IMG/VR virus record: IMGVR_UViG_3300008113_000014
Span: 32,001 to 96,000 of that record
DNA from: a virus
Length of the DNA: 64,000 bases
Direction: 5' to 3' (one strand)
The translations under genes were made by a program, and so were the position numbers. Under the pieces are notes generated by a model that saw only the letters and a program-made list of their open reading frames with translations, made no database searches and was not told the origin of the DNA. Below, in pieces: positions 25,742 through 63,196 of the stretch (its first letter is position 1; every line of letters starts with the position of its first letter).

Positions 25742-25750
25742 CTGTTCTCC

Positions 25751-28702: not shown

Positions 28703-28704
28703 AA

Positions 28705-30089: not shown

Positions 30090-30097
30090 TTTTCTCC

Positions 30098-31586: not shown

Positions 31587-31739
31587 CTTTATCCCCTTTT
31601 TATTTATTATACACTACCTTTATCTTTTTGTAAACAAAAACAACCCTTGTTGCAAGTATTTTGCAAGACATGAATGATAGCACTCATAAAACACAAAAGG
31701 CCAAACAATGTTGGCCAATTGTATTACTTCTTTTTTATT

Positions 31740-32705: not shown

Positions 32706-32745
32706 AGCAGTAATTGTACCATAAGATTATACACTTTTTGATATT

Positions 32746-34696: not shown

Positions 34697-34753
34697 TCAC
34701 ATAGACACACATGGATTGACACAATCCTAGCATGTCTGATACAATGGAATTCT

Positions 34754-35377
34754 ATGCTTGATGAAATCAAAAATGTTTTAATTGGTGGTTTGCTATCCAA
34801 ATTGGCAATCCATCATTCTGTATATCGTTTACCTTGTACAAGTGAATATTTAGAAGAACTTGTATCTGATGTGCTAAACGAAAACGGTATGCCAAATGAC
34901 TGGAAGCCCGATAGAAGCCATAGCGTCAGTATAGACATGACTTTAGAGTCAGGACATAGTATATCCGTCAAGTCAGGAAGATATGACCCAGTAAAAGGAA
35001 CTCTTGTTATATCTGGATCTAGGCTAGGCAAACACGAAACATTAGAAAAGATGGTTGAGAGTGTTTCTTCTACACATGCTGATTACTATGTGTGTTTAGC
35101 CAAAGCAGACCAGGATTGGTCCTCTATACCGTCCAAAAATGAGATTAAGACATATCACCTATTTGTATTTGAAGCGTCAAACCTTGATTATGGTTTTGAG
35201 CATTGGTCAAGAAAAGAATCTAAGCATGGCAAAGGCTACAAATATGTAATGGAGATACCTGGGATGTCAGCTACTATACGTCCTACTATGTCTCATCAGT
35301 TGTGGACTACTGTATCTTGTGATATCATTGGTATACCGTCCAAATTGGAAATTAACAACGACTTTGGAACATACTAA
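34754..35377 (+). CDS. Putative PD-(D/E)xK restriction-like nuclease
   Basis: EYLEE helix...SIDMT...ISVKSG arrangement. Confidence 0.45.
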   Translation: MLDEIKNVLIGGLLSKLAIHHSVYRLPCTSEYLEELVSDVLNENGMPNDWKPDRSHSVSIDMTLESGHSISVKSGRYDPVKGTLVISGSRLGKHETLEKMVESVSSTHADYYVCLAKADQDWSSIPSKNEIKTYHLFVFEASNLDYGFEHWSRKESKHGKGYKYVMEIPGMSATIRPTMSHQLWTTVSCDIIGIPSKLEINNDFGTY

Positions 35378-36796: not shown

Positions 36797-36994
36797 GGCG
36801 ACACGCCGTTGGCGTGGTGTGATATAGGTCACGCTCCAAGCGTGAAGCATAGGATAACGGCTATCGCTACGCCTACAAAGGCTCCAATTAGTCCGTAAGC
36901 GACATTCTCATCTAGGAAATCTTGTAGTGCTGTAAATGGGTTCATGTTAGTGACCTTTCGTTTAGTAGTTATATTTTAACTATCTAATACTGCA

Positions 36995-37023
36995 AGTATA
37001 ACATGGATACCTGTCAAAGTCAA
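36995..37023 (-). promoter_or_regulatory. Leftward sigma-A-type promoter
   Basis: TTGACT-N17-TATACT; also contains TGACAG-N10-TATACT. Confidence 0.7.
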
Positions 37024-37280
37024 GTCCTGACACGGCGTGTCGCATGTGATGTCGCTCACATCGCCTCGGGCGACTTGTCAAATCAACACGCCGATCATTT
37101 TAAGATTGTTATGAGATTGTTATAGTTTTCCCATAAATGTGACCTACATCTCATGTGATACGGCTCACAATGTCCGAATTGGTAGCATTTTGGATTAGAC
37201 ATTTGTCAGACCCCCATGCTACAATTACAGTATAAAGAAAAACAAGCGGTAAAGAAATCCGCTAAAGAAAGGTGGTCACT

Positions 37281-37457
37281 ATGACTACACTAAACACACT
37301 ATGCAAGTGGCATGAGCCTCTTGTTTCCGCTATCTCAGAAATTGGAGATGAGCAATTTACACTATGCATGAATTGCGATAGCAACATTGAGCGTTACTAC
37401 TATGATAGTGACCCTGAGCAATTTCCTACATGGACAGATTGGTATGTGACTAAATGA
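37281..37457 (+). CDS. Small Cys-containing hypothetical protein
   Basis: AGAAAGG RBS after the promoter; CxxC. Confidence 0.6.
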   Translation: MTTLNTLCKWHEPLVSAISEIGDEQFTLCMNCDSNIERYYYDSDPEQFPTWTDWYVTK

Positions 37458-37636
37458 ACGACACTATGCAATTTATAGATGAGCAAGGCTTATGCGCTAT
37501 GGATAACATTTGCGCTTTCTGCATAACACTATTTGACGGGTGGAATAGATTTTGCCCTAGATGTAAGGACTATAAGGGCGTTATGGCTCTCCCTGATTTT
37601 ATCAATACCTATGGAAAGGACGGACTCTCTAAATGA
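37454..37636 (+). CDS. Small Zn-finger-like protein
   Basis: CAFC...CPRC; ATGA overlap. Confidence 0.6.
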   Translation: MNDTMQFIDEQGLCAMDNICAFCITLFDGWNRFCPRCKDYKGVMALPDFINTYGKDGLSK

Positions 37637-37796
37637 GTACCTTTGTTAATCTCCCCTCAGTATGTGGGGCAACATCTGCAAGCGTAGATGTGTATGACTT
37701 AGACCTTAACCCTCATGGGGTTATCTGTTGTGACAATTGCAAATCAATTGTGTTATGCCGTAAGGCTTGGGACTACCTATACAAGGAGGCTAAGTA

Positions 37797-37934
37797 ATGC
37801 CAGTATTTAATTTTGAGTTATTTGTAGATGTAGAAGCAGATGATTTTGAGTCTGCCTTATCATGGCTAAAGGCTATGCCACTAGAGAGACAACTAGATTT
37901 CCATGTCATTGACTATAAGCAATTGGAGGCTTAA
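37797..37934 (+). CDS. 45-aa protein, paralog of 38646..38783
   Basis: MPVFNFELF...FESALSWLK; AGGAGG RBS. Confidence 0.75.
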   Translation: MPVFNFELFVDVEADDFESALSWLKAMPLERQLDFHVIDYKQLEA

Positions 37935-38092
37935 CAAATGAAAAAAAATGTTTTAATTAGTTTTGTAACTGAAGCAGACACAGACCTTCAAGCAGTTTTT
38001 AATTTGAATAAAGTTTTTGCTAAACTTAGCGAAAACGAATTAGAAAAATTTAATGCGTTTGAAGTTTTACCTGTTGAATAAATAAAGCCAAG

Positions 38093-38121
38093 ATCGCAGA
38101 AATAAAAACTCTGCGATTTTT
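38093..38121 (+). terminator. Intrinsic terminator
   Basis: ATCGCAGA / TCTGCGAT stem plus T-run. Confidence 0.7.
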
Positions 38122-38645
38122 GCCTCGGGGAGCTGTGTGATGAGTATCACAAAAAATAATTCTACGACACGCCCGAAAAGGTCCCCAATTTGTCAGTGGT
38201 ACCTGCTAGAATTGCTAGTATAAACAAAAAGAAAGGTCGTTAAATAAATGACACTAGATGAATACAAGGCGCTTGTAGAAGCGCAACGCAAGGCAAGCAC
38301 CTTGCAAGCCATGTCCCTACTAAAGAAAGGCTCAGACAAATGAGCACTTTTGATAGAATACTAAAAGAGCAACAAGAAAAAAGAATTGCTCAATCAATAA
38401 AAGATAAAGCGGTTATTGAAGCCATGTTCTCCAATAACAATCGCCCCCTTAACAATAATCATGAATTAAAGAAAGTAGAAAACTAATGAAAACTAATTTT
38501 GAGATTTCTCAACAGATAAACACTCTTGCTAAAAAGCACTATGGAGACATGGACTTAGCATGGTCATGGGGTTGCGCCCAAGCACTACTAACTACACCAC
38601 AGTTAGAGTTAATTCTAGGAATACTATTAGAGAAGGAGCCAGATA

Positions 38646-38783
38646 ATGCCAGTATTTAATTTTGACATTTCTGTTACCATTGAGGACGATAATTTTGAGT
38701 CTGCTTTATCATGGTTAAAAGTTATTCCATTGGAACGACTTGATTTTATTGTTGTTGATTATACAGAATTGGAGTTAGACTAA
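38646..38783 (+). CDS. 45-aa protein, paralog of 37797..37934
   Basis: MPVFNFDIS...FESALSWLK; AAGGAG RBS. Confidence 0.75.
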   Translation: MPVFNFDISVTIEDDNFESALSWLKVIPLERLDFIVVDYTELELD

Positions 38784-38857
38784 TGCTGGTTGTTTTAATT
38801 GCTATCACTTCATTTGCTTTTGTAATTTGGATGCATAACGGAGCATAATAAAAAAAG

Positions 38858-38885
38858 ATCACAGAACTAAAAAGCTGTGATTTTT
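38858..38885 (+). terminator. Intrinsic terminator
   Basis: ATCACAG / CTGTGAT stem plus T-run; related to the 38093 hairpin. Confidence 0.7.
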
Positions 38886-39147
38886 GCTCGGGCGTTTTCC
38901 ACAGGCTGTGTATAACTTATGTGTTTAAGGTCACACAAAATCTTTCCCATTTTACGGCGTGTCGTTTTGACTTCCTGAAACTTATCTGGTATCCTTGTAG
39001 GTATAACAATTAAATAAAGATAAATCAGGCAGTGAGCCTAGCAAATAAATGTGACGAGTATCACAGTGAGCCTAGCGAATAAATGCCAAGATTTGTCAGC
39101 CCCCCGTGATAGGATAGTCTTATCACTTAAAGAAAGGAAGTCTATAA

Positions 39148-39345
39148 ATGACTTACACTATAACACTAGAAACCTTTAATGGTTCTACTAAAAAAATCAA
39201 CCTTGCCTCTAAGGGTGCGGTTGCTCAATTCGTATCACAATACCCAACACAATTACCTGTTGGCGTATCTGTAAAAATCGCTTGCGATACTCTTGGAATA
39301 AGTGGCACACTTCGTGGCACTTCTACACTAACAAAAACAAACTAA
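39148..39345 (+). CDS. Hypothetical protein
   Basis: AGAAAGGAAG RBS after the promoter. Confidence 0.7.
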   Translation: MTYTITLETFNGSTKKINLASKGAVAQFVSQYPTQLPVGVSVKIACDTLGISGTLRGTSTLTKTN

Positions 39346-39364
39346 AGAATAGGAAATAAAATAA

Positions 39365-39568
39365 ATGAAAATTGAACACAATCTAAAATTCGTAACTGAA
39401 TTTGCAGAGGGCCACCCTGTAACTGCAACAGTAATGGCACTTGATGAAAGCACTCGTATCCTTATGCTAGAGTCAATGCTAAAAGATTTGGTAGGCTCTC
39501 GCCTGCAACCTATCCTTGATGAAATAAATGCTGGTGGGTCCTATGCAATTCTAAAGGTGGCCGAATAA
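39365..39568 (+). CDS. Hypothetical protein
   Basis: ORF in operon. Confidence 0.65.
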   Translation: MKIEHNLKFVTEFAEGHPVTATVMALDESTRILMLESMLKDLVGSRLQPILDEINAGGSYAILKVAE

Positions 39569-39768
39569 TGATGACTCGTAAAGACTATGTAAAAGTTGCC
39601 GAAATTCTTAGCAACTATTTTGCTACATCTGTTTTTGATGAACAAGGAGAAATTTTATTTGCTGATTTGGTAGATGAATTTTCTCTAATGTTTGAAACTG
39701 ATAACCCAAGATTTGACTCTGACAGATTTGCTATTGCTTGCTATAAAGAATTGGAGATGTCAAATTGA
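39568..39768 (+). CDS. Hypothetical protein (MTRKDY...DNPRFD..RF..AC family)
   Basis: Recurrent small phage protein motif; coupled start. Confidence 0.7.
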   Translation: MMTRKDYVKVAEILSNYFATSVFDEQGEILFADLVDEFSLMFETDNPRFDSDRFAIACYKELEMSN

Positions 39769-39920
39769 TTTTAGATACTGGAACACTAATCGCAATCGTA
39801 ATTGCACTTGGCGGATCTTTAACAGTTATGTGTTTATTTTGGAAACAAAATATTGCACAACAAAAAGAAATTCGCAGATTACAAATTTTATTGCGAACTG
39901 AGCGACTAAAATAAAATAAA

Positions 39921-39950
39921 AGACCTGAGCATGTCTGTGCAAAACTGCTT
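39921..39950 (+). ncRNA. H-type pseudoknot motif, copy 1
   Basis: AGAC-CT-GAGCA-T-GTCT...AAAC-TGCTT. Confidence 0.7.
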
Positions 39951-40187
39951 GATCCTTTTAAATAAAAAAAGCTCGGGGGTTTTTCCACAGGCCTTTGTGG
40001 ATAACTTTACGTGGTTGTGATTTTTCTCACATTTGTTGAGCGTCTCATTATTTAAGACTACTCACTAGTAGGTTGATAAATTATGATTAACAGGATAGAC
40101 TTACATAGTAAGAAAAAATAAATAACCGAAATTTGTCAGACCCTAGTGGTAGGATAAATAAATAACAACAAAGAAAGAGGTTGGCAA

Positions 40188-40400
40188 ATGTCAGCAAATG
40201 TCTATTCAATAGAAAACCTACTTGTAGGAAAAACTTATCACTCACGCACTTTAACAGGCGAAATCATAGATGCAGAAAAGTCTGATGTCTTTTATGGCTC
40301 AGGCTTAGAAAGTTATCGTGTTCAGGTTCGCCCACACTATCCTTCAGTATTTAATCTAAAGGACACTTATCGTATTCTATCAGTAAAGGTTGGAGAATAA
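40188..40400 (+). CDS. Hypothetical protein
   Basis: GAGG RBS after the promoter. Confidence 0.65.
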   Translation: MSANVYSIENLLVGKTYHSRTLTGEIIDAEKSDVFYGSGLESYRVQVRPHYPSVFNLKDTYRILSVKVGE

Positions 40401-40404
40401 ATAA

Positions 40405-40596
40405 ATGGGAAACTTACTAGACTTTTTGGTTGATTGTGTTGATTGCCATGATGAGGGTGTCCTCTTTTTTGGTAATGGTGGCGAGGAATACGACTCAGAA
40501 TTTTGCGATTGCGCTAAAGGCGTGTCGCTTGAAAATGAATACTGTGCATGGTATGCTGAAAGTATCATGAACGAAAACTATAAGGAGAATAACTAA
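40405..40596 (+). CDS. Cys-rich hypothetical protein
   Basis: CVDC...CDC; GGAG RBS. Confidence 0.6.
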   Translation: MGNLLDFLVDCVDCHDEGVLFFGNGGEEYDSEFCDCAKGVSLENEYCAWYAESIMNENYKENN

Positions 40597-40814
40597 TGAA
40601 CGAATACCTATACTCAGTTACTTGTACCTATGACTCAGATACCTCCACCACTTGGGTAGGGCGTTATAGTGACGCTTTATCTGCCGTTGAAAGTTATCAA
40701 AAGTTTATTGACCATGGACTTGCTAAAGAATACTCAACAATTAACTTGTCTGAACCTTCAGGCAAGATGCACACAAAAACTTTCTACAAAACAGGATTGG
40801 TGGTAACACGATAA
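40596..40814 (+). CDS. Hypothetical protein
   Basis: AAGGAG RBS; coupled start. Confidence 0.65.
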   Translation: MNEYLYSVTCTYDSDTSTTWVGRYSDALSAVESYQKFIDHGLAKEYSTINLSEPSGKMHTKTFYKTGLVVTR

Positions 40815-41137
40815 TGGGACACAATACAGCGATTGACTTAGCAGAAAACATTGACATAAGCCTTGAACAGGCTATCGGTTATCACTTACAGGGTAATCAC
40901 TACCCACCCGTACCGCTAAGCATGGTTCAGCCTTGCATTGAGGCGTTAGACGCTGCACGAGAAATGGACGCCATGCGCCAGATTGAAATGCCTGAAGGCA
41001 TAACCTATAAGGGCAAAACTCATGCACCAGCATGGGCTATCATTGAACAACACCACTTGGACGCTTGGTTGCCACAAGATGAGGCAGACTATTGGGAAGA
41101 AGATGCAGGCTATGAATCAGGATTAGGTTTAGAATAA
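40814..41137 (+). CDS. Hypothetical protein (HL..NHYPPVP family)
   Basis: Coupled ORF. Confidence 0.7.
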   Translation: MGHNTAIDLAENIDISLEQAIGYHLQGNHYPPVPLSMVQPCIEALDAAREMDAMRQIEMPEGITYKGKTHAPAWAIIEQHHLDAWLPQDEADYWEEDAGYESGLGLE

Positions 41138-41211
41138 ATGAGTACTTTTTTTATTCCACACTCAAAGTATTGCGATTGCCCAGAGTGTTTAGACATGGAG
41201 GAACAGAATAA

Positions 41212-41445
41212 ATGAGTGCTACAATTATTGACATGGAACTTGTAAAAGCTGATTCTCTAACTGTTGATGCGTTAGAACTTGGCGATCTAATTGGTTATGG
41301 TGATGAGATTGTTGAAGTAACTTTTATTGAATGTGATTCAACGGGAGATAACTATGACATTCAAATTGTAAATGATTTTGGTGAAAAAGAAATTGTTCAG
41401 TTTGCATTTGATGAAGAAGTTGATTGGTACGTTTATTTAGATTGA
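41212..41445 (+). CDS. Acidic hypothetical protein
   Basis: GGAGG RBS. Confidence 0.65.
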   Translation: MSATIIDMELVKADSLTVDALELGDLIGYGDEIVEVTFIECDSTGDNYDIQIVNDFGEKEIVQFAFDEEVDWYVYLD

Positions 41446-41671
41446 AAAACGCCCGAGGGGGCCCTGTGAGATTCATCACATTTACGAGATTTGATATTTT
41501 TCCCCATATCTGGTAAAATTATTACATGAAGAAAAATGCTGAGGAATTAAGACGCCTAATGGAATTACGGCGATCTAATGCAGCCTCCGCTGTTCCAAAT
41601 AAAAAAAAGTATGATAGAAAAAAATGTCAGTCCCTTATGCTAAAATTAAAGAAAGAAAGCGAGTAGCCACC

Positions 41672-42394
41672 ATGTCAAAATTACTTAGAAGCAAAGATAG
41701 GAAAGTAGCAAATGCAGTTACACCAAATGGAAAACAAGCAAGTATCGCCAACACTTTCGGATTACCCGCAGGCAAGGCTTATTCATGTCCTGGAGCGACT
41801 AGCGTATGCGAGAGTGTTTGTTATGCTGGCAAGCTTGAAAAAGTATTCCCAACAGTAAAGAAAAACTTATTGCACAATTGGGAATTAGTTAAAGACGCAG
41901 ACCATGACACTATTGAAGCATTGCTTGAAGACATGATTAGTGAGTTTATTGCAGACTGCAAAAAGAAAGACGCACCCATGCTATTCCGTATCCACTGGGA
42001 CGGGGATTTCTTTAATGACACTTACACATTCGCATGGAAGCATGTCATTCTTAATCATCCTGAAATTCAATTCTGGGTTTATACAAGAGTTAAGTCTGCA
42101 GCGGTAATGCTTAAGGACATTGATAATCTATCTTTATACTATTCTACAGATAGTGAGAATAAGTCTATTGGCGTTACCCTGAAAAAAGATCATGGTATTC
42201 GTCTTGCATACCTTGCTAAGAATTTCTTAGTAGGACAAGCAGACATGAAAGAGATGATAGGCAAGGTAGGGGCTAAGTGTCCTGAGAATAAAAAGGCTAT
42301 CCCACTTATCTCAACAAATGGTTCGGCTTGCGTTTCTTGCTCATTGTGTGTATACTCAAAGAGTGACATAGTATTTTCATCAAGTAAAAAGTAA
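41672..42394 (+). CDS. Gp88-like Cys-rich (radical-SAM-like) protein
   Basis: FGLPAG..SCPGAT..C...CYA and FRIHWDGDF motifs; start after promoter/RBS. Confidence 0.7.
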   Translation: MSKLLRSKDRKVANAVTPNGKQASIANTFGLPAGKAYSCPGATSVCESVCYAGKLEKVFPTVKKNLLHNWELVKDADHDTIEALLEDMISEFIADCKKKDAPMLFRIHWDGDFFNDTYTFAWKHVILNHPEIQFWVYTRVKSAAVMLKDIDNLSLYYSTDSENKSIGVTLKKDHGIRLAYLAKNFLVGQADMKEMIGKVGAKCPENKKAIPLISTNGSACVSCSLCVYSKSDIVFSSSKK

Positions 42395-42582
42395 GGAGAT
42401 AAATGGAAAGCCTATTTATCCTATTAGTAATGGGGTTATTAGTGTTTATGATTTACCAATAAGTGACTTACATCACACCCGTAAGCGTCTCAAATAGTGA
42501 GAAATACAAGAAATGGAGTTGAAAAATGTCAGTAGGAAATGTTATACTTAATACATACAACAAACTAAAAAGGAGAAACAAC

Positions 42583-42747
42583 ATGACAGTAGCAAATACA
42601 TACAAGGTAGGCGACCTCTACACATCACAGAAGTCAAAGGTAACAGGAACAATTCTTGAAATCTCACCTACTGCAAAGGACACAGTTCGTGTTAAGTTAG
42701 ATGTTAATGGTAACACACGCTGGACAACATGGAAAGCGCAATCGTAA
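42583..42747 (+). CDS. Small SH3-like hypothetical protein
   Basis: AAGGAG RBS; YKVGDL...GTILEI. Confidence 0.65.
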   Translation: MTVANTYKVGDLYTSQKSKVTGTILEISPTAKDTVRVKLDVNGNTRWTTWKAQS

Positions 42748-42773
42748 TCTAACAAGCCAGTTAGATAGTAACT

Positions 42774-42803
42774 CAGACCTGAGCAAGTCTGCTAAAACTG
42801 CTC
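42774..42803 (+). ncRNA. H-type pseudoknot motif, copy 2
   Basis: CAGAC-CT-GAGCA-A-GTCTG...AAAC-TGCTC. Confidence 0.7.
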
Positions 42804-42866
42804 ACACAAAATGTCAGACCTAACCCCTATACTATAAATAAACCACCAAAGAAAAGAGAAAAACAC

Positions 42867-43289
42867 ATGGCACGACAAAAAGCAATCTCAGTAAAGATAG
42901 CAACACCAAAAGTAATCAAGGCACTAGAAACTGCACTAGCAAAGTTAGAAGCAGACTACGCATCACAAGAAGCAAACGAGGCTAAGTATGAAAAGACTCG
43001 TAAGGCTTGGCTAAAAGAAATGCAAGACTACGCTATTGCTAACATCAAGAAGGCAGAGAACTTTCGCACCAACTATCGTTCATGGTCAAATAATCTTAAC
43101 ATTGACTTTGACTTAACAGTTAGCGAAAAGGATTTGCCTAAAGAGCCTGAGAAGGACTTTGAGACAATTCATGTTCATAGTTATCGTGAGCAGAAAGAGG
43201 AAATCTCTAACGCAATTCGTATTCTAAAGATGACAGATGAGGAAACAGTTTCCACATCAACTTATCAAGCGGTTGCTCGTTATCTGTAA
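42867..43289 (+). CDS. Hypothetical protein
   Basis: 140-aa ORF after promoter 42812. Confidence 0.75.
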   Translation: MARQKAISVKIATPKVIKALETALAKLEADYASQEANEAKYEKTRKAWLKEMQDYAIANIKKAENFRTNYRSWSNNLNIDFDLTVSEKDLPKEPEKDFETIHVHSYREQKEEISNAIRILKMTDEETVSTSTYQAVARYL

Positions 43290-43325
43290 ATAATTTGGGG
43301 GGCAACTTAAAGTCCTAAACCCAAA

Positions 43326-43352
43326 CAACCTAAGCAAGTTGCAAAACTGCTT
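43326..43352 (+). ncRNA. H-type pseudoknot motif, copy 3
   Basis: CAAC-CT-AAGCA-A-GTTG-CAAAAC-TGCTT. Confidence 0.7.
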
Positions 43353-43389
43353 CACTAAAGTTACTGCCAGTGCTATAGCGAGGCAGACG

Positions 43390-43416
43390 TTCCTGAGCAT
43401 GAATTGAAAAGGCTCA
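43390..43416 (+). ncRNA. H-type pseudoknot motif, copy 4 (weaker)
   Basis: TTC-CT-GAGC-AT-GAA...AAAG-GCTC. Confidence 0.55.
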
Positions 43417-43559
43417 CTTTTTGCCCCCGAGCTCATGTGAATTTGATCACACCCTTTACGTACCACCATTTAAGATCCCTGGATTTACGATTGGCATTTG
43501 TCAGTCCAACCTGCTAGAATTATATTAATATCAGAACAACAGAAAGAAGGAAGCCCCCA

Positions 43560-44057
43560 ATGGGACTAGACATGTACCTAAGTGCTAGAAAGCATTTTGA
43601 AAAAATCAACTGGCAAACACTACAGGCTAATGATGAATTATCTTACAATTCACCTGAAGCCGTATATCCTAAGTTCAATGACCTAATGGCATTGACACAA
43701 CTCACAAATGTTGCAACAGATATTTATGGAGCAGAAGTAACAGTTACTTGTGCCTACTGGCGCAAGGCTAATCAGATACACGCTTGGTTCGTAAAGAATG
43801 TTCAACATGATGTTGATAACTGCGGAGACTACTATGTCTCACAAGATAAACTAATAGAATTGCTTGCACTATGTAAGCATGCCCTAGCAACAAAAGACCC
43901 TAGCCTATTCCCACCACAAGCAGGGTTTTTCTTTGGTGGTACAGATATTGATGAATGGTATTGGCGTGACCTTACTGATACTATTAGTCAATTAGAGCGT
44001 ATCTTTGCGCTACCAGAAATTGATAAGTTATCATTTTTTTATTCATCATCTTGGTAA
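43560..44057 (+). CDS. Conserved phage protein (MGLDMYL...YWRKANQIHAWF)
   Basis: Recognisable motif; RBS. Confidence 0.75.
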   Translation: MGLDMYLSARKHFEKINWQTLQANDELSYNSPEAVYPKFNDLMALTQLTNVATDIYGAEVTVTCAYWRKANQIHAWFVKNVQHDVDNCGDYYVSQDKLIELLALCKHALATKDPSLFPPQAGFFFGGTDIDEWYWRDLTDTISQLERIFALPEIDKLSFFYSSSW

Positions 44058-44121
44058 TTGACATTTGTCAGTGCCATACCCTATAATTAAACTAACCAAC
44101 AAACAGAAAGAGGTAGCCCTC

Positions 44122-44559
44122 ATGGACCAGCAACAAATTCCACCAGTAGTAAAAACAGATAATCACTACATGACACGAGAGTTTTTAGAAACTACTCTTG
44201 TACAAAACAAAACACGGATAGATGAATTAGAAAAGCATATCCAAGTCGTAACACAACGCTCATACGGCGAGGCTGCAGAGCGCAACCGTATGCGTACTGA
44301 AATGCAAGAGTGGACTTTTGAAGCAATTGAAGCAGGCACACTCAATGAGTCAGAAGGACAAGAAATTGCTGACATCTGTGGCTTTGAACTTACAAAAGAA
44401 TTTGAAGTTGAAGTTACAGTTATGTATTCAGTTACAGTGAATGCACGAAATGAAGAAGAAGCACAAAATGCAATTCACGATATTGATTTTGATACTGTAG
44501 ATTACAATTCAGATTCAATTCAATACCTATCATCTTCAATTGATAGAGTAGATATTTAG
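44122..44559 (+). CDS. Hypothetical protein
   Basis: GAAAGAGG RBS defines the start. Confidence 0.7.
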   Translation: MDQQQIPPVVKTDNHYMTREFLETTLVQNKTRIDELEKHIQVVTQRSYGEAAERNRMRTEMQEWTFEAIEAGTLNESEGQEIADICGFELTKEFEVEVTVMYSVTVNARNEEEAQNAIHDIDFDTVDYNSDSIQYLSSSIDRVDI

Positions 44560-44574
44560 TAGGGGGCTACTAAT

Positions 44575-44601
44575 GGACCTGAGCATGTCCTTAAACTGCT
44601 T
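44575..44601 (+). ncRNA. H-type pseudoknot motif, copy 5
   Basis: GGAC-CT-GAGCA-T-GTCC-TTAAAC-TGCTT. Confidence 0.7.
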
Positions 44602-44780
44602 TATTTTTATTTATGCCGTTGCATAAAAATGCAGCTCGGGGGCGTGACCAAGATCACACTGTGTTTTACGACACATTAAAAAAATGTCCATTTTTTCCCA
44701 TTTTCAACTATCCTGATTTGCATTTGTCAGACCCATTGTGTATAATTAAATTAACTACAAAAGAAAAGGAAAAATAACTC

Positions 44781-45797
44781 ATGGCACATGAACTAGAAAC
44801 ACAAAATGGCGTAGCAAGTTTTGCCTCATTTCGTGAACCTGCTTGGCATGGATTGGGTACTGTATTCACAGAGGAAAAAACCACAAAAGAAATGTTAGAT
44901 TTGGCTAATCTTTCTAATTGGAATGTTCGTCTTGAGGATTTGGAAACCCCTTCACATTTAACAAGCGACAAAAACTATCAGTATGTTTTGCGTACTAACC
45001 CTACAGATACAACACAGACAGACATTTTAGGTGTCGTTGGTGAGCGTTATCATGTTATGCAAAACGAGGATTTATTCTCATTTGGCGATAACATTTTAGA
45101 TGGTGGTGGTCGTTGGGAAACGGCTGGCTCAATCAAGGGTGGTCGTGTCGTATTTGGTGCGTTAGCACTAGAGCGTGAAACTATTCTTGACCCTAATGGT
45201 GTTGCAGATAAGGTAAAGACTTATTTGCTCATCAATACATCACATGACGGCTCAATCGCTATTCAAGCAAGCATAACACCTGTTCGTGTTGTGTGCGCTA
45301 ACACTCTTAATCTTGCGCTTAACACTACAAAAAAGAAAAATGGCGTTAAGCAATCTTTCAAGATACGCCATACACAAACTGCAAGCGGTAAGGTTGCCGT
45401 TGCTCGTGAAACTCTTGGGCTTGCTCATAAGTACATGGACTCTTTTGACCTCATGGCTAAGGCTATGATTGAAAAAGAAATCAATGCTACACAATTCAAT
45501 GACATCATTTTGGCTGCCTATCCAAAGCCTGAAAAGGACTCTAAGGGTGCTTTCAAGAAATGGGAAAACAAGGTAGATGTTATTAACGACATTTACACAG
45601 GCGAGTTTAACGGCATGATTGCTGGTAACGCTTGGGGTGCTTTCAATGCACTAACTGAACGCCTTGATTGGTATCGTTCTGCTCGTGGTGGTTCTAACGA
45701 ATCTATCCTTGCAAGCGCAAGCGGATTTGACCCTGCTATTAACGCAGAAAAAAATCGTTTGCTAAAAGTTGTGCAAAATGTTTTGCAAATTGCATAA
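44781..45797 (+). CDS. DUF932-family phage/plasmid protein
   Basis: PAWHGLG, ETAGSIKGG, SHDGS, PVRVVCANTL and AWGAFNALTE motifs. Confidence 0.85.
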   Translation: MAHELETQNGVASFASFREPAWHGLGTVFTEEKTTKEMLDLANLSNWNVRLEDLETPSHLTSDKNYQYVLRTNPTDTTQTDILGVVGERYHVMQNEDLFSFGDNILDGGGRWETAGSIKGGRVVFGALALERETILDPNGVADKVKTYLLINTSHDGSIAIQASITPVRVVCANTLNLALNTTKKKNGVKQSFKIRHTQTASGKVAVARETLGLAHKYMDSFDLMAKAMIEKEINATQFNDIILAAYPKPEKDSKGAFKKWENKVDVINDIYTGEFNGMIAGNAWGAFNALTERLDWYRSARGGSNESILASASGFDPAINAEKNRLLKVVQNVLQIA

Positions 45798-45804
45798 CTA
45801 AAAA

Positions 45805-45832
45805 AAATCCTGAGCAAGATTTAAAACTGCTC
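45805..45832 (+). ncRNA. H-type pseudoknot motif, copy 6
   Basis: AAATC-CT-GAGCA-A-GATTT-AAAAC-TGCTC; ends 4 nt before tRNA-Asp. Confidence 0.7.
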
Positions 45833-45836
45833 GCAA

Positions 45837-45910
45837 GGTTCCATAGATCAATTGGTTAGATCGCTACCCTGTCACGGTAGAGGCTACGGGTTCAAGTCCC
45901 GTTGGAATCG
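45837..45910 (+). tRNA. tRNA-Asp(GTC)
   Basis: Cloverleaf; CTACC-CTGTCAC-GGTAG anticodon arm, GGTTCAAGTCC T arm; no encoded CCA. Confidence 0.93.
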
Positions 45911-46057
45911 CAAGCTTAAGTGGGCCCCGAGGAAATTAGTACAAAACGGACATTTAAGAAACTATATAAATAATCTCAGAAAATTTAATTACGACAGACT
46001 TGCTTTTTTCCCAGTTTTTTGCTACAATTAATTTATGACTACCACAGGAGAAAAATA

Positions 46058-46270
46058 ATGGAACAATTCATAGATACACTAGCAGAGCACATTACAGGTG
46101 CTATCCAACAAGAAATAGCAGAAGAACTATTTGACCAATGGTCTTACAATAATTTAGAGGAAGGTGAGGACTATGCAGAAAACAAATTCATGCAATACGC
46201 CTCAGATGAATTAAAGCAACAGTATAACGAATACTATGGGTACATAGAGGGAGATGAATTCCTACTATGA
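46058..46270 (+). CDS. Acidic hypothetical protein
   Basis: AGGAG RBS. Confidence 0.65.
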   Translation: MEQFIDTLAEHITGAIQQEIAEELFDQWSYNNLEEGEDYAENKFMQYASDELKQQYNEYYGYIEGDEFLL

Positions 46271-47074
46271 TTACCTCTCAAGAACTAATTGATTATATGT
46301 ATGACGATAACCTAATACATTTTGACGACAGAGATACATCAGATGATTGTGATTGCCACATTCATATAACACTACAAACTATGATTAAATATATGGAGGC
46401 AATTGAATGCTAGGTTATACCATTGATGATTTAGATAAGATGAGCAATGCTGTACACAATGCATACAAGCATATCACTGACCCTGATGATAAAGAGGGTA
46501 TTTTAATGGCACAACAATTTCTCCAGGGCCTATGGGCAGAAGGGTACTTTGACTAATGACACTAGACGATGTATTAGATAAGATTGAGGCTATCATTGAT
46601 AGTACTCATTCTGTTGTATCCCCGCTAAAAATGGATCACTGCAAGTACTGTACCACTTGGCTTACTCTGACAGAGGAGTTAAACTAATGTGGACTAAATA
46701 TGATTATCTATGTACTGACTGTGATGCTCTTATTGAGGTCACTACCCTGCAAGATCTGAGACGAGATGTCTATGGCTCTTGTCCCTGTGGATCTAATAAG
46801 ACAATTAACATTGGGGTAGGAGATGCCTCTCGCCATGAAGAACCTGTGACGAACATCACACCTGTCAGACTTGTCAAAATCAACAGCAACCCCTATAATT
46901 GATATATGGACCTAAATACATTAAGAGAGTATATAAAAATTCACCTAATTTCATTGGAGCAAGATGTTGAGGACGCTAACAATGATATTCCTATTAGTGA
47001 TGATGAGCACTATGAAGCAGACCTTTATTACGAGGGAGCAATCGCTACCTGTGAACACCTATTGGAGTATATAA

Positions 47075-47350
47075 ATGGATAATCTAACATTAGAGCCGCA
47101 CCTACAACGTATGGTAGACGCAGGGGTATCAGGAACAGACATCCTGCACGGAGAGCTTAAGAACCTTATGCTAATGGCAGAGCAAGAACTAGCAGAGGCT
47201 AGCGAACGTGAGCAGGAAACAGAAGAGGCTATGGACTCTATGGTACGCACAGAAGCAGAAGGAAGACTAGACGCCTTAGTAGCAGTATATAATCTAACAT
47301 ATGCCTTGTCCTTTGCTATCTCTGACCGTATGAAGTTGACAAACCAATAG
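47075..47350 (+). CDS. Hypothetical protein
   Basis: GGAG RBS. Confidence 0.65.
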   Translation: MDNLTLEPHLQRMVDAGVSGTDILHGELKNLMLMAEQELAEASEREQETEEAMDSMVRTEAEGRLDALVAVYNLTYALSFAISDRMKLTNQ

Positions 47351-47396
47351 GGTTGCTGTAAAATTATATTAAACCACCAAATAGAAAGAGACCGCC

Positions 47397-48092
47397 ATGC
47401 CAAACTGGGTATATAACGGATTAACCATTGAGGGTAATCCTGATTCCGTAAAGAAGTTAATGGAGCAGATGAATACACCATTCGTTCGTGTCCATGATAA
47501 CTGGAGCACTGAGACACAGCAAATGCAAAAGCAACAGGTGACATATCCAAACCCTGTCTTTGCTTTCTGGAACATTGTTAAGCCTACTAATCTAGAGGCA
47601 TATGATGGTCCTCAACCAACCAACACAGACTTAGCACAAGCAATGCGATTTGAGTCAGACCATTGGTACGACTGGAATGTTCGTAACTGGGGTACCAAGT
47701 GGGATGTAGCCGTCTCATCTGTTGATACTCATCCTGATACATACATGGAAGATACTGTTAATGGTGAGAACCATGTCGTCTACTATAATTTTAATACCGC
47801 TTGGTCTCGCCCAATGCCTGCACTAATTAAACTATCTAATCAGTACCCTGACTTGCTATTTACTTTATCATATGAGGAAGAAACTGGCTGGGGTGGAGAG
47901 TTAGAACTCTTGCGTGGAGAAATTATCTCAGAATCAGAATATGACAACATGTGCCGTGAATGTGACGGTACATACGAAAACAGTGAACTTGTTGAATGTA
48001 GCGACTGCGGATACCATCTATGCCCACACTGTGGCTGGAGCAATGATATGTGTGAGACCCACCAAAAGACCTATGAGGAGAAGCATGCCTAA
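47397..48092 (+). CDS. Api92/DUF1281-like ferredoxin-fold protein
   Basis: MPNW.., WYDWNVRNWGTKWD and FNTAWSRP motifs. Confidence 0.75.
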   Translation: MPNWVYNGLTIEGNPDSVKKLMEQMNTPFVRVHDNWSTETQQMQKQQVTYPNPVFAFWNIVKPTNLEAYDGPQPTNTDLAQAMRFESDHWYDWNVRNWGTKWDVAVSSVDTHPDTYMEDTVNGENHVVYYNFNTAWSRPMPALIKLSNQYPDLLFTLSYEEETGWGGELELLRGEIISESEYDNMCRECDGTYENSELVECSDCGYHLCPHCGWSNDMCETHQKTYEEKHA

Positions 48093-48327
48093 GACTACTT
48101 ATCTTATTGAACTATGTGTTGATGAAAAATGGTATGAGGCCATTAGCACGCTAACCGCTGATGTATACGAGGATGAAGTATGCGAATGGGTCAGGGTACA
48201 GGCAGAGACTGAGACTGATGATCAAGACTGTGAGAACTGTGAAGAGAACCCTAAAGAGCACCCTGAAGGCAAGTGGTGTACCTCCTGCAGGGATGACTTT
48301 AAAGAGTCAGATGAGGACGACGAATGA
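48085..48327 (+). CDS. Hypothetical protein with CxxC pairs
   Basis: GAGGAG RBS before MPKTT. Confidence 0.55.
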   Translation: MPKTTYLIELCVDEKWYEAISTLTADVYEDEVCEWVRVQAETETDDQDCENCEENPKEHPEGKWCTSCRDDFKESDEDDE

Positions 48328-48388
48328 ACTGGACACAATTGACACTATTTGATATACTGGAAGAAACTACTACAAAAGGAGAAACACC

Positions 48389-48757
48389 ATGGGAGCAAGA
48401 ATAAATTTTGTATTTAAAGACGCAGAGGCTGCTGTAGGGGAGCCCACATCATCTGTTGTACTTTACAGCCACTGGGGCCAGGACGGATGGGAAGTTGACA
48501 TTGCCAAAGCTTTAGAACATGCCAAGCCCCGCTGGAATGATTCATCATACGGGACCAGAATGATTATTAGTTATCTTATTCAAGATAGCATTCTAGACGA
48601 AACGGGTTTTGGAATCTATTCAATCCGTGGAACTAACTATGACCTGGGGGAGCAGACAGTGGTTATTGATTTTGTTAATAAGACTGTTACTGATAACGTT
48701 CCCGTCAAATGGGATAAGTTTATCCAAGCATATTTACCTGAGCACGCAGTAGTATAA
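48389..48757 (+). CDS. Conserved phage protein (MGAR...LYSHWG)
   Basis: AAGGAG RBS; motif. Confidence 0.7.
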   Translation: MGARINFVFKDAEAAVGEPTSSVVLYSHWGQDGWEVDIAKALEHAKPRWNDSSYGTRMIISYLIQDSILDETGFGIYSIRGTNYDLGEQTVVIDFVNKTVTDNVPVKWDKFIQAYLPEHAVV

Positions 48758-48769
48758 TCATACTGCAAC

Positions 48770-48813
48770 GGGGGAGTGCGATTTGTGGTGGGTTGCGCTC
48801 CCCCCTTATTTTT
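48770..48813 (+). terminator. GC-rich terminator/small hairpin RNA
   Basis: GGGGGAGTGCG...TGCGCTCCCCC followed by TTATTTTT. Confidence 0.7.
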
Positions 48814-48837
48814 GATACAATTAGGTAAGGGAGAACC

Positions 48838-49047
48838 ATGAGAAAAAAACTAATCACAAAAGAGGAAAAGGTAGCAATCCAACTATCCAATGTCTTAGCA
48901 GACCTACGCCTTGACCTTGACATGGTAGGCAAGTATTTGGTACAATTATCACCTAATGTAATTTATAATCGTTTAATCGTAATCGCTGACTCAGCCCAAG
49001 CAGAAAAGGAACAACAGTATGACCACTACCAATACAGACTATTCTAA
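48838..49047 (+). CDS. Hypothetical protein
   Basis: GGGAG RBS. Confidence 0.65.
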   Translation: MRKKLITKEEKVAIQLSNVLADLRLDLDMVGKYLVQLSPNVIYNRLIVIADSAQAEKEQQYDHYQYRLF

Positions 49048-49285
49048 AAAGATAGAAATCTTAAATGACATTTGGCTTAACCATTCCGATAACGAATTTT
49101 TTGAGTATTTTATTGAGACTAATGATTTAGGTTTACCAATGGCTCACTTTATTTTTCAGGGTATAGTAGAGTCCACCCCATTAGCAAAAGAACTAATAGA
49201 TCAATCATTTGCTGACCTATTAGAATTGTTTGAGTATGAGGACGAAGGCTTTGAGGCACTAACTGATTTTTGGGGTTTTGCATAA
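49019..49285 (+). CDS. Hypothetical protein, paralog of 62637..62939
   Basis: IL.D.W...FIE.NDLGLP.A shared motif. Confidence 0.7.
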   Translation: MTTTNTDYSKKIEILNDIWLNHSDNEFFEYFIETNDLGLPMAHFIFQGIVESTPLAKELIDQSFADLLELFEYEDEGFEALTDFWGFA

Positions 49286-49344
49286 AATCTTTCATAAATA
49301 AAAGCTGACTTGACAAAAGCCCCTTCGGGGCCCCGAGAGATTTT

Positions 49345-50198
49345 TATCAAACCATAAAACCTTATTACGATCAAACCTTTTCTTTCCCCAAATTTGACAT
49401 TACGAGCAACCAAAAAATTTTCCAGATTCATGGATATTACGACAGCTGTAGAATTTTCCAGATTCTAGCATATCAAACCTTCTTTGTCAAACCATGTTAT
49501 AATAATCTTATGGGAAGAAACTATTTTTCAAAGCATGGTGGACCTTACTTTAAGAACGATGGGTTCTCTCAACACTCTCATTCCCATGATGATCCACATG
49601 ATATCAAACCAGACTATGTATCTATCTTTATAGCTGTAGGGTTTGTTACTATGACAGTTTCTTTACTTATAGTAACCATACTTCTTTAGATCCCCCGCCA
49701 TAACGCATCAAATAATCCTGTTAGACATTACGATCAACGCTTTAGCGTCCCCGTTTTTGACGGGGGATATATATAAACCATACACCAAATACCCCCTATA
49801 GAATAACAAACCTTTTCTCCTGGTTTTGGATATGTTATTAAATATTATCAAACCTTTCTATTATATTATTGGACATTATGGGCAATTTTGTATATGTTTT
49901 TATATAGCTTTTAAACTATAAAGGTTTGACAAATAGAGGTTTGTATGATATGATCCATGCCAGATGTGAGGTTTGAAGAAAGGTTTGTAAGGTTTGAAGG
50001 TTTGGTATGTGAGGTTTGAAAGCCGTGGACATTACGACGCCATCTATAAAAGTGCTCAATTCTCCACTATCCTCCACTTCCCTCCACCCAAACCATATAT
50101 TAAAAATATCAGTAAGATCTAATTGTGGATAACCTGTGGATAACTATGTGTAAAACACTAATTTACGCTATCCAAATTATCGTTTCTACTGTGGATAA
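49345..50198. other. Putative replication origin/packaging region
   Basis: Seven CAAACC then seven inverted AGGTTTG copies around an AT-rich core; DnaA boxes TGTGGATAA at 50124, 50135 and 50190. Confidence 0.6.
49510..49689 (+). CDS. 59-aa His-rich membrane peptide
   Basis: TGTTATAAT ends 6 nt before the ATG; HSHSHDDPH followed by a TM helix. Confidence 0.5.
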   Translation: MGRNYFSKHGGPYFKNDGFSQHSHSHDDPHDIKPDYVSIFIAVGFVTMTVSLLIVTILL

Positions 50199-50380
50199 CT
50201 TCTATATTGGTTTGCATATAGATGTGTATTTCAAAAACGGTACAGCTCTTTGGCTATGGGGCATATCCTCAAAGCCAGGTGTTATTACCTGGTGTATTTA
50301 CTATAGGGGTAATGGGGTCTTTCTTGACATACCGTTCAAAATTTAAACAATGCTATAATTGATGAAAAGAAGGAGCAACA

Positions 50381-50731
50381 ATGGCATTTCCAGTAATATA
50401 TGATTTTGATTGTTATGAGGGCGATACTCATACATTTAATGTTGTTGTAAAAGGTTTAAATGACACCAACTTCCTTGCACTTGCCAGAGCTGGAACAACT
50501 TATACATTTTCAATTGCTAACGAAAGAAGTGCAAGTGCCTCTTTTAAAACTACTGGATATATCATAGCTACTACAGACTTAATTTCATGCACTATAAGTG
50601 GATCTCTTACTCCTGGGCAATACGTATATTCTGTTAGACAAAATCAACCAGCCTTTGGTGGCGGATTAGCCCTAGTCTACACCTTTGTTACAGGAACAAT
50701 AACTGTTAAGAGTAAGGTTCCATCAATTTGA
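50381..50731 (+). CDS. BppU-N-like adaptor paralog
   Basis: YEGDT..F...PGQYVY...GTITV; AAGGAG RBS. Confidence 0.55.
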   Translation: MAFPVIYDFDCYEGDTHTFNVVVKGLNDTNFLALARAGTTYTFSIANERSASASFKTTGYIIATTDLISCTISGSLTPGQYVYSVRQNQPAFGGGLALVYTFVTGTITVKSKVPSI

Positions 50732-50986
50732 AAACAATAGAAGTTAACCAAGCAATACAAACCATTACAGTTTATATAATTGCAGATACAGTATCTGCAA
50801 AACAAAATGTTCCAGTTATTACTGCTTATCAGTATTAATATATACTTTATTTGACTTCCCCGCAAAAATAGGGTATGCTTGTTTTATGAAGAAAAACGAA
50901 TGCCAAAAATGTGAGATGAGTCACAAAGATCCCATCTTCTGGGATACTCATCAAACCATGTCAGATGGAAGGATCTGGTGTACTAA

Positions 50987-52873: not shown

Positions 52874-52892
52874 TTATATATCCCCTTAAATA

Positions 52893-53231: not shown

Positions 53232-53288
53232 ACATTTAGTATATCATATTTGACATTCTTCTAATCTTGATGCTATAATAAAGTATAG

Positions 53289-53360: not shown

Positions 53361-53385
53361 CTATGCTATTAAAAAAGGATAATAA

Positions 53386-53592: not shown

Positions 53593-53599
53593 TCTTGAC

Positions 53600-57477: not shown

Positions 57478-58602
57478 CTATAAGCGATTGATCTGCTTGT
57501 TTATAAACTCCAAGAATTTACCAGTAATTAGTGCAAACCCTAGCTCAGGCTTAGCATTAACACATTCTGGACTGACTATATACTTTGCCCACTCCTTTAC
57601 AGATGCCTTGTTCTTGCCTGCTGTATCTGCTAAAAGGTAGGATACAATCCCTAGAGGGTATGCTCCAGCCTCTTTGGTAGAGTAGTCGTAGGTAAGTATA
57701 TTGTTTGAGTCTATTGAGGCTTCTCCAAGGAATGCTGATACATTTGCGCTATTAGGCTCAACAAAGTTACCAGAAGCATTTCCTATGTTTGCCACCTTAA
57801 GGTTAAAGAACTTGGCAAAAGAAACCTCTGCATATGTAATAGAATACTTAGTCTTTGATGCAAGTGTTGCTACACCCTGTGACTGATTTGCTCCAGAGAT
57901 TCTTCCTATGTTATTTACATCATTAATGTTATTTGGAAATGATGTTGAAAATGAATCAGAGACGGGCTTAGTCCATGTATTAGGAGAAAAGGCCTTCATA
58001 TATCTAACAAAATTATTAGTTGTGCCAGAGTTATCTAGTCTAAAAATAACTTTAATTTTTTGGTTTGGCATAGTGTATACAATGCTTTTGGTTGACGTTC
58101 TTAATACTACTGGGCTGCCAGCCTTATCTTTAATTAGATTACCAGTTGCATCTTTCTTATATACTACCTCTTTAATTTTTCTATTGTTGTCAGCCTTAAT
58201 AGCAGGATCATTCCACATTGTTATTTCTCCCGCAAAAATCTTAGCGACTGTAGTTGATGATAGATAAACCTGTCTGTTACCTGGCAGGTTGTGCATAACG
58301 GCAATAGGTGCTGCAACTACTGGAATATGAATAATTGATGGCTTCTTAGTTGATGCAGTATGAGCTGAGTCTGAAAACCAGAAATCACCAATGCCTTTGT
58401 CAGATGAGGTCTTGCCAGCACCAGAACCGTTGGCTGAGTATGTTACTAAATTGCCTGTGTTCCTAGCATAAGATGATCTGCATTCGTCAATGAGGTTGGC
58501 TGGGAAAGATGCACCATTGCCAACAATATTTTCTGCTGCAAAGGCTGGGGTAGAAATAGATAGAGCAGCAACTACTGCCATTACGATAAGTTTAATTCTC
58601 AT
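57478..58602 (-). CDS. pstS: Phosphate ABC transporter substrate-binding protein
   Basis: Signal peptide; G.GASF, YSANGSGAG, IT.WNDPAI, R.DNSGTT and AYPL motifs. Confidence 0.88.
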   Translation of the reverse strand: MRIKLIVMAVVAALSISTPAFAAENIVGNGASFPANLIDECRSSYARNTGNLVTYSANGSGAGKTSSDKGIGDFWFSDSAHTASTKKPSIIHIPVVAAPIAVMHNLPGNRQVYLSSTTVAKIFAGEITMWNDPAIKADNNRKIKEVVYKKDATGNLIKDKAGSPVVLRTSTKSIVYTMPNQKIKVIFRLDNSGTTNNFVRYMKAFSPNTWTKPVSDSFSTSFPNNINDVNNIGRISGANQSQGVATLASKTKYSITYAEVSFAKFFNLKVANIGNASGNFVEPNSANVSAFLGEASIDSNNILTYDYSTKEAGAYPLGIVSYLLADTAGKNKASVKEWAKYIVSPECVNAKPELGFALITGKFLEFINKQINRL

Positions 58603-62637: not shown

Positions 62638-62939
62638 TATTTTTTATCTTTTCTATCTACAAAGTTAAAGATATCTTCCAATGATTCCCAGCCAAGATCT
62701 TCAACAACTTCTAATGCTGCTAAAAATATGTCCCAGGTTTCATATACATATTGTTTAGCTAACTGTGTTGGCTCTACAAGCTCATTATCAATTAAAAATG
62801 CAATAGGCAAACCAATATCGTTATACTCAATAAAATCTTTAAAGTATTTATCATTCTTATAGTCCATCCATAGTTCACCAAGAATTGAACAGATTGATTC
62901 AAAACTACTTACTTGGTGTCCATTGTTAGAGTTTTCCAT
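62637..62939 (-). CDS. Hypothetical protein, paralog of 49019..49285
   Basis: Shared motif. Confidence 0.7.
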   Translation of the reverse strand: MENSNNGHQVSSFESICSILGELWMDYKNDKYFKDFIEYNDIGLPIAFLIDNELVEPTQLAKQYVYETWDIFLAALEVVEDLGWESLEDIFNFVDRKDKK

Positions 62940-63196
62940 ACTTCACCCCACTGCTCCTTTGTTCTATGCTTACTAAACTCTCTAGATATTTCGCCATTTT
63001 CTAAGTATATACCGCCCCAAATTCCCCACTCTTTTCCTGATACTCCATTAGCAAAGCATACTTTTTGAACTGGACAGGCCTGACAAAGATTATCTATTAT
63101 TGGTCTGATTAGTTCATCATCTTCATATTTATCAAAAAATAAATTTGTATCCATATCAAAGCAGGCGCCATTATCTTTCCATAGGTGCTGCTCCAT
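62909..63196 (-). CDS. whiB: WhiB-family Fe-S transcription factor
   Basis: W....AC...FF...C..CPV...C...GIWGG. Confidence 0.9.
   Translation of the reverse strand: MEQHLWKDNGACFDMDTNLFFDKYEDDELIRPIIDNLCQACPVQKVCFANGVSGKEWGIWGGIYLENGEISREFSKHRTKEQWGEVWKTLTMDTK

Follow-up and report, generated by a model that had tools for sequence, protein, structure and literature searches.

Putative PafBC-type hybrid promoters ahead of a small-gene block in a freshwater actinophage genome

In mycobacteria and other actinobacteria, the response to DNA damage is regulated mainly by PafBC. Its promoters follow the in vivo consensus tGTCgg(N10)tA(N3)T, in which a canonical -10 is combined with a -26 element and no -35 is present; PafB contacts positions -23 to -28, and its residues R46 and R50 read a GTC that is nearly invariant across actinobacteria (PMC8635444). 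The same motif is known as the RecA-NDp promoter (PMC6789036). Here we describe ten copies of such an arrangement, TGTCAG-N10-TAnnnT, within a block of small genes in the virus record IMGVR_UViG_3300008113_000014 of IMG/VR, which stems from an uncultured lake phage. The window, that is, the whole stretch of DNA analysed, comprises 64,000 nucleotides corresponding to bases 32001-96000 of the complete 108,863-bp record, and all coordinates are given in window numbering. The ten sites are called class A in what follows, and class B designates the canonical TTGACA-N17/18-TAnnnT promoters of the same genome.

Several described phage systems offer partial parallels. The middle promoters of T4 (MotA box at -30 plus a sigma70 -10, used through AsiA/MotA "sigma appropriation") are likewise hybrid promoters dedicated to one class of phage genes, and they share with the scheme proposed below an upstream element that replaces the -35 and is read by a protein wedged at sigma domain 4. 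The T4 readers, however, are phage-coded and remodel sigma, whereas no candidate of phage origin came to light here, and the element corresponds to a host activator site, located about 3 bp closer to the -10 than the MotA box. The terminal redundancy of SPO1 and the first-step-transfer region of T5 are host-takeover or pre-early modules with standard housekeeping-sigma promoters; they resemble the present block in their dense tiny orphan genes and in the apparent provision of each short unit with a strong promoter of its own. In temperate phages, control by LexA/RecA (cleavage of lambda CI, LexA-controlled antirepressors) also ties phage expression to host sensing of DNA damage or single-stranded DNA (ssDNA). 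That control consists in removing a repressor at prophage induction, whereas positive activation is proposed here, and neither a tyrosine integrase (PF00589, six-frame search of the phage genome) nor a recognisable repressor was found.

All ten class A sites lie on the + strand between 37204 and 44746 (Table 1), exactly where a preliminary description of this DNA had placed them. Only 0.66 copies are expected, and 0 of 100 shuffles of the window reach this count. Relaxing the pattern to TGTCRG adds no further site in the window, and of the spacings from 7 to 14 nt only 10 shows enrichment, 7-9 and 11-14 giving 0-3 scattered matches. The rest of the 108,863-bp genome holds zero further copies, and the motif is thus restricted to this one block. 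At each of the ten sites, a Shine-Dalgarno sequence (purine-rich ribosome-binding site) and an open reading frame (ORF) of 31-338 aa follow 25-55 nt past the -10, as had been reported. The original identification with the actinobacterial RecA-NDp/PafBC motif also holds, since sequence and spacing equal the published consensus (PMC8635444, PMC6789036), and so does the estimate that about half of the sites have no -35: a TTGACA-like hexamer (at least 4/6 matches, at 18 bp) is present at five of them, to which we add that seven have an extended -10 (TGn, with TG one base ahead of the -10).

The comparison with the PafBC (RecA-NDp, recA P1-type) promoters of Mycobacterium and other Actinobacteria (PMC8635444, PMC6789036, PMC11804915) is very close regarding architecture. 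Both are 22-nt bipartite non-palindromic motifs with a GTC core at about -26 and a housekeeping-sigma -10; the published promoters do not require a -35. The differences concern the setting and the flanks. The phage sites stand in a phage genome ahead of at least ten tandem transcription units of orphan small genes instead of DNA-repair genes, they have CRP-like boxes upstream, and their position 5 is nearly always A, with AWW upstream and CC downstream of the hexamer.

The motif is well preserved in relatives of the phage. In 80 close relatives (DUF932 at least 90% identical) the coding strand carries 604 copies of it and the opposite strand 52. The logo of 436 distinct sites reads A-W-W-TGTCAG-w-C-C-N4-T-G-n-TAnAAT-T, with almost no information elsewhere. 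Across the 58 variants of the orthologous DUF932 promoter, TTGTCAG and the -10 are retained on either side of a scrambled 10-nt spacer, and a few of them show TGTCGGTGG, which is the host-like form. When forward-strand sites are picked by their flanking context only, 288 are exact and 16 have one mismatch; 14 of these mismatches fall at positions 5-6, G2 and T3 are invariant, and C4 is changed once. This tolerance profile fits the one reported for PafBC sites, where the near-invariant GTC is read by PafB R46 and R50. No 4/6 match to TTGACA is present at 61% of 453 distinct sites, and 22% have neither a -35 nor TGn, the other 78% having TGn and/or a -35-like hexamer.

IMG/VR holds more than 390 contigs related to this phage, and scanning it with the pattern extended the view to 80 loci. 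Of these, 75 come from the broader phage family, whose shared ORFs have about 40-75% protein identity, with up to 15 motif copies per locus on one strand; the other five contigs belong to unrelated viruses and have single or scattered copies only. The scan of unrelated phages therefore leaves a host reader and a phage reader equally compatible with the data. Dozens of small orphan proteins are also conserved across the phage family. Two further observations were made on the relatives. At 30% of 465 distinct sites, TGTCAG is preceded at a distance of 31-40 nt by an ATGTCC element (relatives L011-L090; 37160 and 44688 in the window). The near-complete contigs L015, L039, L041, L042 and L044 (76-112 kb) terminate within the small-gene block, at 1-6 kb upstream of DUF932, which could reflect a collapsed terminal repeat (the repeats of Samistivirus relatives measure about 11 kb) or strain hypervariability.

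Although its GC content of 37% at first sight points away from it, the virus is best regarded as an actinophage by virtue of its gene relatives. The portal is 46% identical to those of Streptomyces Samistivirus phages, the GP88-family protein is about 50% identical to mycobacteriophage counterparts, and the genome carries a WhiB-family gene, an actinophage hallmark, together with a PstS-like gene (Table 1) whose relatives beyond Nanopelagicales / Ca. Planktophila reach at most 40% identity. The nearest relatives of PstS, taken with those of the portal and WhiB, lead us to think that its hosts are low-GC freshwater actinobacteria, most likely Nanopelagicales (acI). The phage, in which no tyrosine integrase was found, is probably lytic; it encodes a Pol III alpha, a DnaB-like helicase, a RecA-like protein, a class II ribonucleotide reductase and five tRNAs of its own. 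The load of host-like genes is heavy (window 23761-33456 and 52046-58602, and the rest of the genome), including ten 2OG-Fe(II) oxygenase genes, TauD, PstS, HSP20, thioredoxin, glutathione peroxidase, APS kinase, the class II ribonucleotide reductase and an NMN transporter. Searched at the nucleotide level, the class A block has no match among 50,697 phage records, and a WhiB protein search for cultured Planktophila phages returned none among the matches. The two isolated Planktophila phages have 39 kb and a sigma factor of their own (PMC10202952).

In the inferred host lineage, Nanopelagicales, pafBC is present with its DNA-reading arginines conserved. A complete Nanopelagicaceae chromosome carries pafB and pafC in tandem as adjacent genes (329 + 318 aa), one coding for WYL + WCX and the other for HTH_PafC + WYL. 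The alignment of the first product with M. smegmatis PafB, as present in the structure of PafBC with RNA polymerase (RNAP) (7p5x; E 5e-40), is full-length and includes the conserved RMFERDK segment that holds R46 and R50. The helix-turn-helix (HTH) of PafC was detected in 39 of 41 sampled host-family genomes. Upstream of recA in the complete chromosome lies TTGTCAGTG-N8-TACCTT, directly followed by an SOS box, and the LysM and DUF6504 genes of the same chromosome also have the motif beside an SOS box. The phage-flavoured motif WWTGTCAGNCC-N7-TAnnnT gives 16 matches in the 41 host-family genomes versus 2 for the reversed control.

Two host loci may be mentioned here as separate observations. 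Four host-family genomes (L314, L320, L322 and L323, at about position 1501) share one conserved site with the phage-flavoured motif WWTGTCAGACCCCATCCCTAATAT, after which about 90 nt end in the tRNA-3'-end-like GTTCGAGTCC...CACAAC. ARAGORN found no tRNA and Rfam no family at this site, which may be an island border or a small RNA under a PafBC-type promoter. In a Nanopelagicaceae chromosome, a low-GC island (41-42% vs 48%; L189 8001-14000, G001:C1:704001-710000) contains two divergent PafBC-type promoters (AATGTCAGTCC...), and a tblastn comparison with the phage ORFs revealed no shared genes.

No phage-coded reader of the motif could be recognised. Six-frame searches of the whole phage genome yielded no WYL domain, HTH_PafC, host-PafB relative or sigma70 region 4, which extends to the full record the earlier statement that the window has no PafBC-like gene. 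Comparison of the 45 proteins of the + strand block with Pfam and PHROGs gave no transcription-factor family (no MotA, AsiA, HTH, sigma or WYL) and no repressor-like gene.

We interpret the ten sites as PafBC-type (RecA-NDp) hybrid promoters, through which host PafBC would boost the small-gene block upon the appearance of ssDNA; we assign to this reading a probability of roughly 0.6. As the promoters are built like those of the host, the phage probably borrows the PafBC switch. Host RNAP with the housekeeping sigma (SigA) would read the -10 TAnnnT, and at most sites the extended -10 TG too, while the ssDNA-loaded host PafB-PafC heterodimer would sit between sigma domain 4 and the DNA. The winged helix of PafB would read the GTC core of TGTCAG at about -26, a mode of action named "sigma adaptation", and transcription of the class A block would be raised when ssDNA appears in the infected cell. 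The ssDNA could come from processed ends of the phage DNA, from phage replication, from nuclease attack or from DNA damage. The neighbouring genes would run from ordinary -35/-10 promoters.

The preliminary description had seen in this host sensor the switch for the early programme. In part this is backed by the motif, the actinophage character, the pafBC genes and recA motif of the host lineage and the failure to find a phage reader. Its scope has to be reduced: since canonical promoters drive neighbouring + strand genes, PafBC, if acting, would govern one block only, and the CRP-like boxes upstream point to further regulatory inputs. Timing and purpose of the block we infer, the "early" timing only from gene content and architecture.

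Several points weigh against PafBC as the reader. Published PafBC promoters have no -35, whereas a -35-like hexamer is found at 39% of the 453 distinct sites, compared to 19% at control TAnnnT positions, and at five of the ten in the window; the extended -10 TG is present at 59%. An extended -10 can make a -35 dispensable without any activator, and because most class A promoters have an extended -10 or a -35-like hexamer, many of them may show PafBC-independent basal firing. At the DUF932 promoter, a TTGCAT at 17 bp is no less conserved than TGTCAG itself. The phage flavour, with AWW ahead of the hexamer, CC behind it and A at position 5 in 97% of sites, is unlike the TGTCRGTG of the host, and the strict motif stands upstream of recA in only 9 of 30 host-family genomes, with TGTCCT variants in 3 more. 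The host itself is deduced from one auxiliary gene plus gene relatives. No motif enrichment was found in the related Streptomyces phages Daubenski and LilMartin, whose hosts also have PafBC, so that the motif does not characterise the virus family as a whole. Lastly, a novel phage-coded reader is possible among the small block proteins that have no known fold.

This last point leads to the alternative that survives best, in which TGTCAG would be read by a small phage protein, made from a class B promoter or brought in with the virion and acting in the manner of T4 MotA/AsiA. A precedent exists in T4, where, as cited in PMC8635444, a phage-specific upstream element is combined with the host -10. 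The separate canonical promoter class could express such a factor first, the flavour AWW-TGTCAG-wCC, in which position 5 is fixed as A, departs from the host consensus, multi-copy enrichment is seen in this phage family only (the five unrelated contigs having single or scattered copies), and the conserved orphan proteins number dozens. We nevertheless consider this unlikely. The factor would need to converge on the hexamer core, the 10-nt spacing and the per-position tolerance of the host site, and it is this coincidence that disfavours an unrelated phage protein. Searches of the phage gave no WYL, PafB, PafC, sigma or HTH family, the first class B promoter stands ahead of a gene that resembles a nuclease and not a regulator (a lead only), and host-family chromosomes carry the phage flavour above control (16 vs 2).

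It is conceivable, if rather improbable and less likely than a phage-coded reader, that the sites are ordinary SigA promoters, with an extended -10 and with or without a -35, needing no activator, in which TGTCAG serves as operator for a phage or host repressor or shut-off factor, comparable to the one-orientation stoperators of mycobacteriophage L5, or as a spacer element that tunes promoter strength. Such promoters would account for the TGn and/or -35-like hexamer at 78% of the 453 sites, for the perfect TTGACA-N18-TATAAT of promoter 9 and for the conserved -35 of the DUF932 promoter, and further candidate operators (CRP-like boxes, ATGTCC, GGCGTGTC) lie nearby. Operators, however, need no fixed distance from a -10, yet the spacing is exactly 10 at all ten sites and at hundreds in relatives, which speaks against this possibility. 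Moreover, 22% of the sites, promoter 7 included, have neither TGn nor -35, no repressor-like or integrase gene was found, and the canonical promoters of the same genome do well without TGTCAG. Mere chance, or recent duplication of a cassette that left the motif as a functionless relic, can practically be dismissed: other short blocks common to the promoter regions could suggest common descent, but 0 of 100 shuffles reach ten copies, hexamer and -10 are fixed amid flanks and spacer low in information, and conservation of the motif at only 40-75% protein identity already contradicts it.

Some 30 small genes, including those for GP88 and DUF932, make up the class A block (37.2-45.8 kb). Assembled contigs from four lake metatranscriptome libraries align to it, some at identities of at least 95-99%. 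One contig start at 42549-42551, recurring in three studies just past the -10 of promoter 6, was not counted as start-site evidence, these being assembled contigs of relatives with possible DNA carry-over. For a 140-aa conserved protein, the best named match in the ESM Atlas scored 0.76 (Nmad5), which is too low to serve as a lead. Several units have at their 3' ends a repeat GACCTGAGCAWGTC...AAACTGCT (39921-39955, 42777-42805, 43320-43350 and 44575-44600), often followed by CTCGGGG.

The class B promoters (Table 1) occupy a different part of the map. In the 80 close relatives, TGTCAG occupies the stretch between about 9 kb upstream and 3 kb downstream of DUF932, whereas canonical promoters continue for 10 kb downstream, and this spatial separation suggests two regulatory classes. 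The leftward TGACAG-N10-TATACT that the preliminary description took for a variant of the motif is present at 37016-36995, but it belongs to a canonical promoter and, as it has no GTC core, is not of the PafBC type. The 207-aa product of 34754-35377 has ESM Atlas neighbours (0.94-0.97) in viral clusters in which 15-18% of the members belong to the ThaI or SmaI restriction-endonuclease families, which is a lead only. One may speculate that a nuclease made first could itself create the ssDNA signal.

The CRP/GlxR-like palindromes number 12 against 0.66 expected, all within the + strand small-gene region. Most of those in the window stand 43-159 nt upstream of a class A promoter, and in relatives mostly 50-75 nt upstream of TGTCAG. 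A CRP-family gene is present in the Nanopelagicaceae (host-type) genome, and a six-frame search of the phage genome for HTH_Crp_2 found none. Another element, GGCGTGTC / GACACGCC, has five copies in the genome, all within 36799-40529 of the window; the GACAC inside it we take to be the WhiA core motif. GGCGTGTC also occurs directly upstream of the recA SOS box in many Nanopelagicaceae genomes.

Table 1. Promoters, palindromes and marker genes in the window (TGn, extended -10; distances in bp are between -35-like hexamer and -10).
Feature	Position	Strand	Sequence	Downstream gene or remark
Class A promoter 1	37204..37225	+	TGTCAG-N10-TACAAT; TGn; -35-like TAGACA at 18 bp	ORF 37281-37457 (58 aa) and small ORFs to 38081
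Class A promoter 2	38191..38212	+	TGTCAGTG-N8-TAGAAT; TGn; no -35	ORF 38248-38343 (31 aa) and ORFs to 38783
Class A promoter 3	39094..39115	+	TGTCAG-N10-TAGGAT; TGn; no -35	ORF 39148-39345 (65 aa) and ORFs to 39914
Class A promoter 4	40134..40155	+	TGTCAG-N10-TAGGAT; TGn; no -35	ORF 40188-40400 (70 aa) and ORFs to 41445
Class A promoter 5	41625..41646	+	TGTCAG-N10-TAAAAT; TGn; no -35	GP88-family gene 41672-42394
Class A promoter 6	42527..42548	+	TGTCAG-N10-TATACT; TGn; -35-like TTGAAA	ORF 42583-42747 (54 aa)
Class A promoter 7	42812..42833	+	TGTCAG-N10-TATACT; no TGn; no -35	ORF 42867-43289 (140 aa)
Class A promoter 8	43499..43520	+	TGTCAG-N10-TAGAAT; TGn; -35-like TTGGCA	ORF 43560-44057 (165 aa)
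Class A promoter 9	44066..44087	+	TGTCAGTG-N8-TATAAT; perfect TTGACA at 18 bp (TTGACA-N18-TATAAT)	ORF 44122-44559 (145 aa)
Class A promoter 10	44725..44746	+	TGTCAG-N10-TATAAT; -35-like TTTGCA (TTGCAT at 17 bp)	DUF932 gene 44781-45797
Class B promoter	34716..34745	+	TTGACA-N18-TACAAT	Ahead of restriction-endonuclease-like gene 34754-35377
Class B promoter	46871-46899	+	11/12 match to TTGACA/TATAAT	+ strand genes downstream of class A block
Class B promoter	47336-47364	+	11/12 match to TTGACA/TATAAT	+ strand genes downstream of class A block
Class B promoter	48917-48946	+	11/12 match to TTGACA/TATAAT	+ strand genes downstream of class A block
Class B promoter	49926-49954	+	11/12 match to TTGACA/TATAAT	+ strand genes downstream of class A block
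Leftward canonical promoter	36995..37023	-	TTGACT-N17-TATACT; contains TGACAG, no GTC core	
CRP/GlxR-like palindromes (n=12)	36819, 37046, 37155, 38137, 39051, 40017, 41466, 42463, 43437, 44644, 46846, 50911		(T)GTGA-N6-TCAC(A)	Region 36819..50924
PstS-like phosphate-binding gene	57478..58602	-		Nanopelagicales / Ca. Planktophila genomes hold the ten best cellular relatives (51-57% identity)
WhiB-family gene	62909..63196	-		Nearest relative Streptomyces phage WhiB; in the far replication block; only recognised transcription factor of the genome

WYL-domain ssDNA sensors also control anti-phage defence. A full-text literature search combining PafBC, RecA-NDp or sigma adaptation with phage gave no paper on phage promoters of the PafBC type; the papers found dealt with WYL regulators of defence systems, and there was a citation that PafBC affects mycobacteriophage resistance. 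Regarding the purpose of the block, we see about even odds for a scenario in which a widespread family of lake phages, probably lytic, gave up a middle-gene activator of its own and uses host PafBC to fire takeover or counter-defence genes. The alarm could then be tripped by nuclease attack on the incoming DNA, by the nuclease-like gene of the phage or by phage replication.

If PafBC is indeed the reader, sigma adaptation would here be put to viral use for the first time. Even though the natural host is difficult to cultivate, the phage promoters would lend themselves to a simple and portable test in M. smegmatis with and without pafBC. An alarm of the host would double as a switch of the phage, which would change how the arms race around ssDNA sensing is read, and sigma adaptation would reach beyond DNA repair, in an ecologically dominant freshwater phage-host pair.

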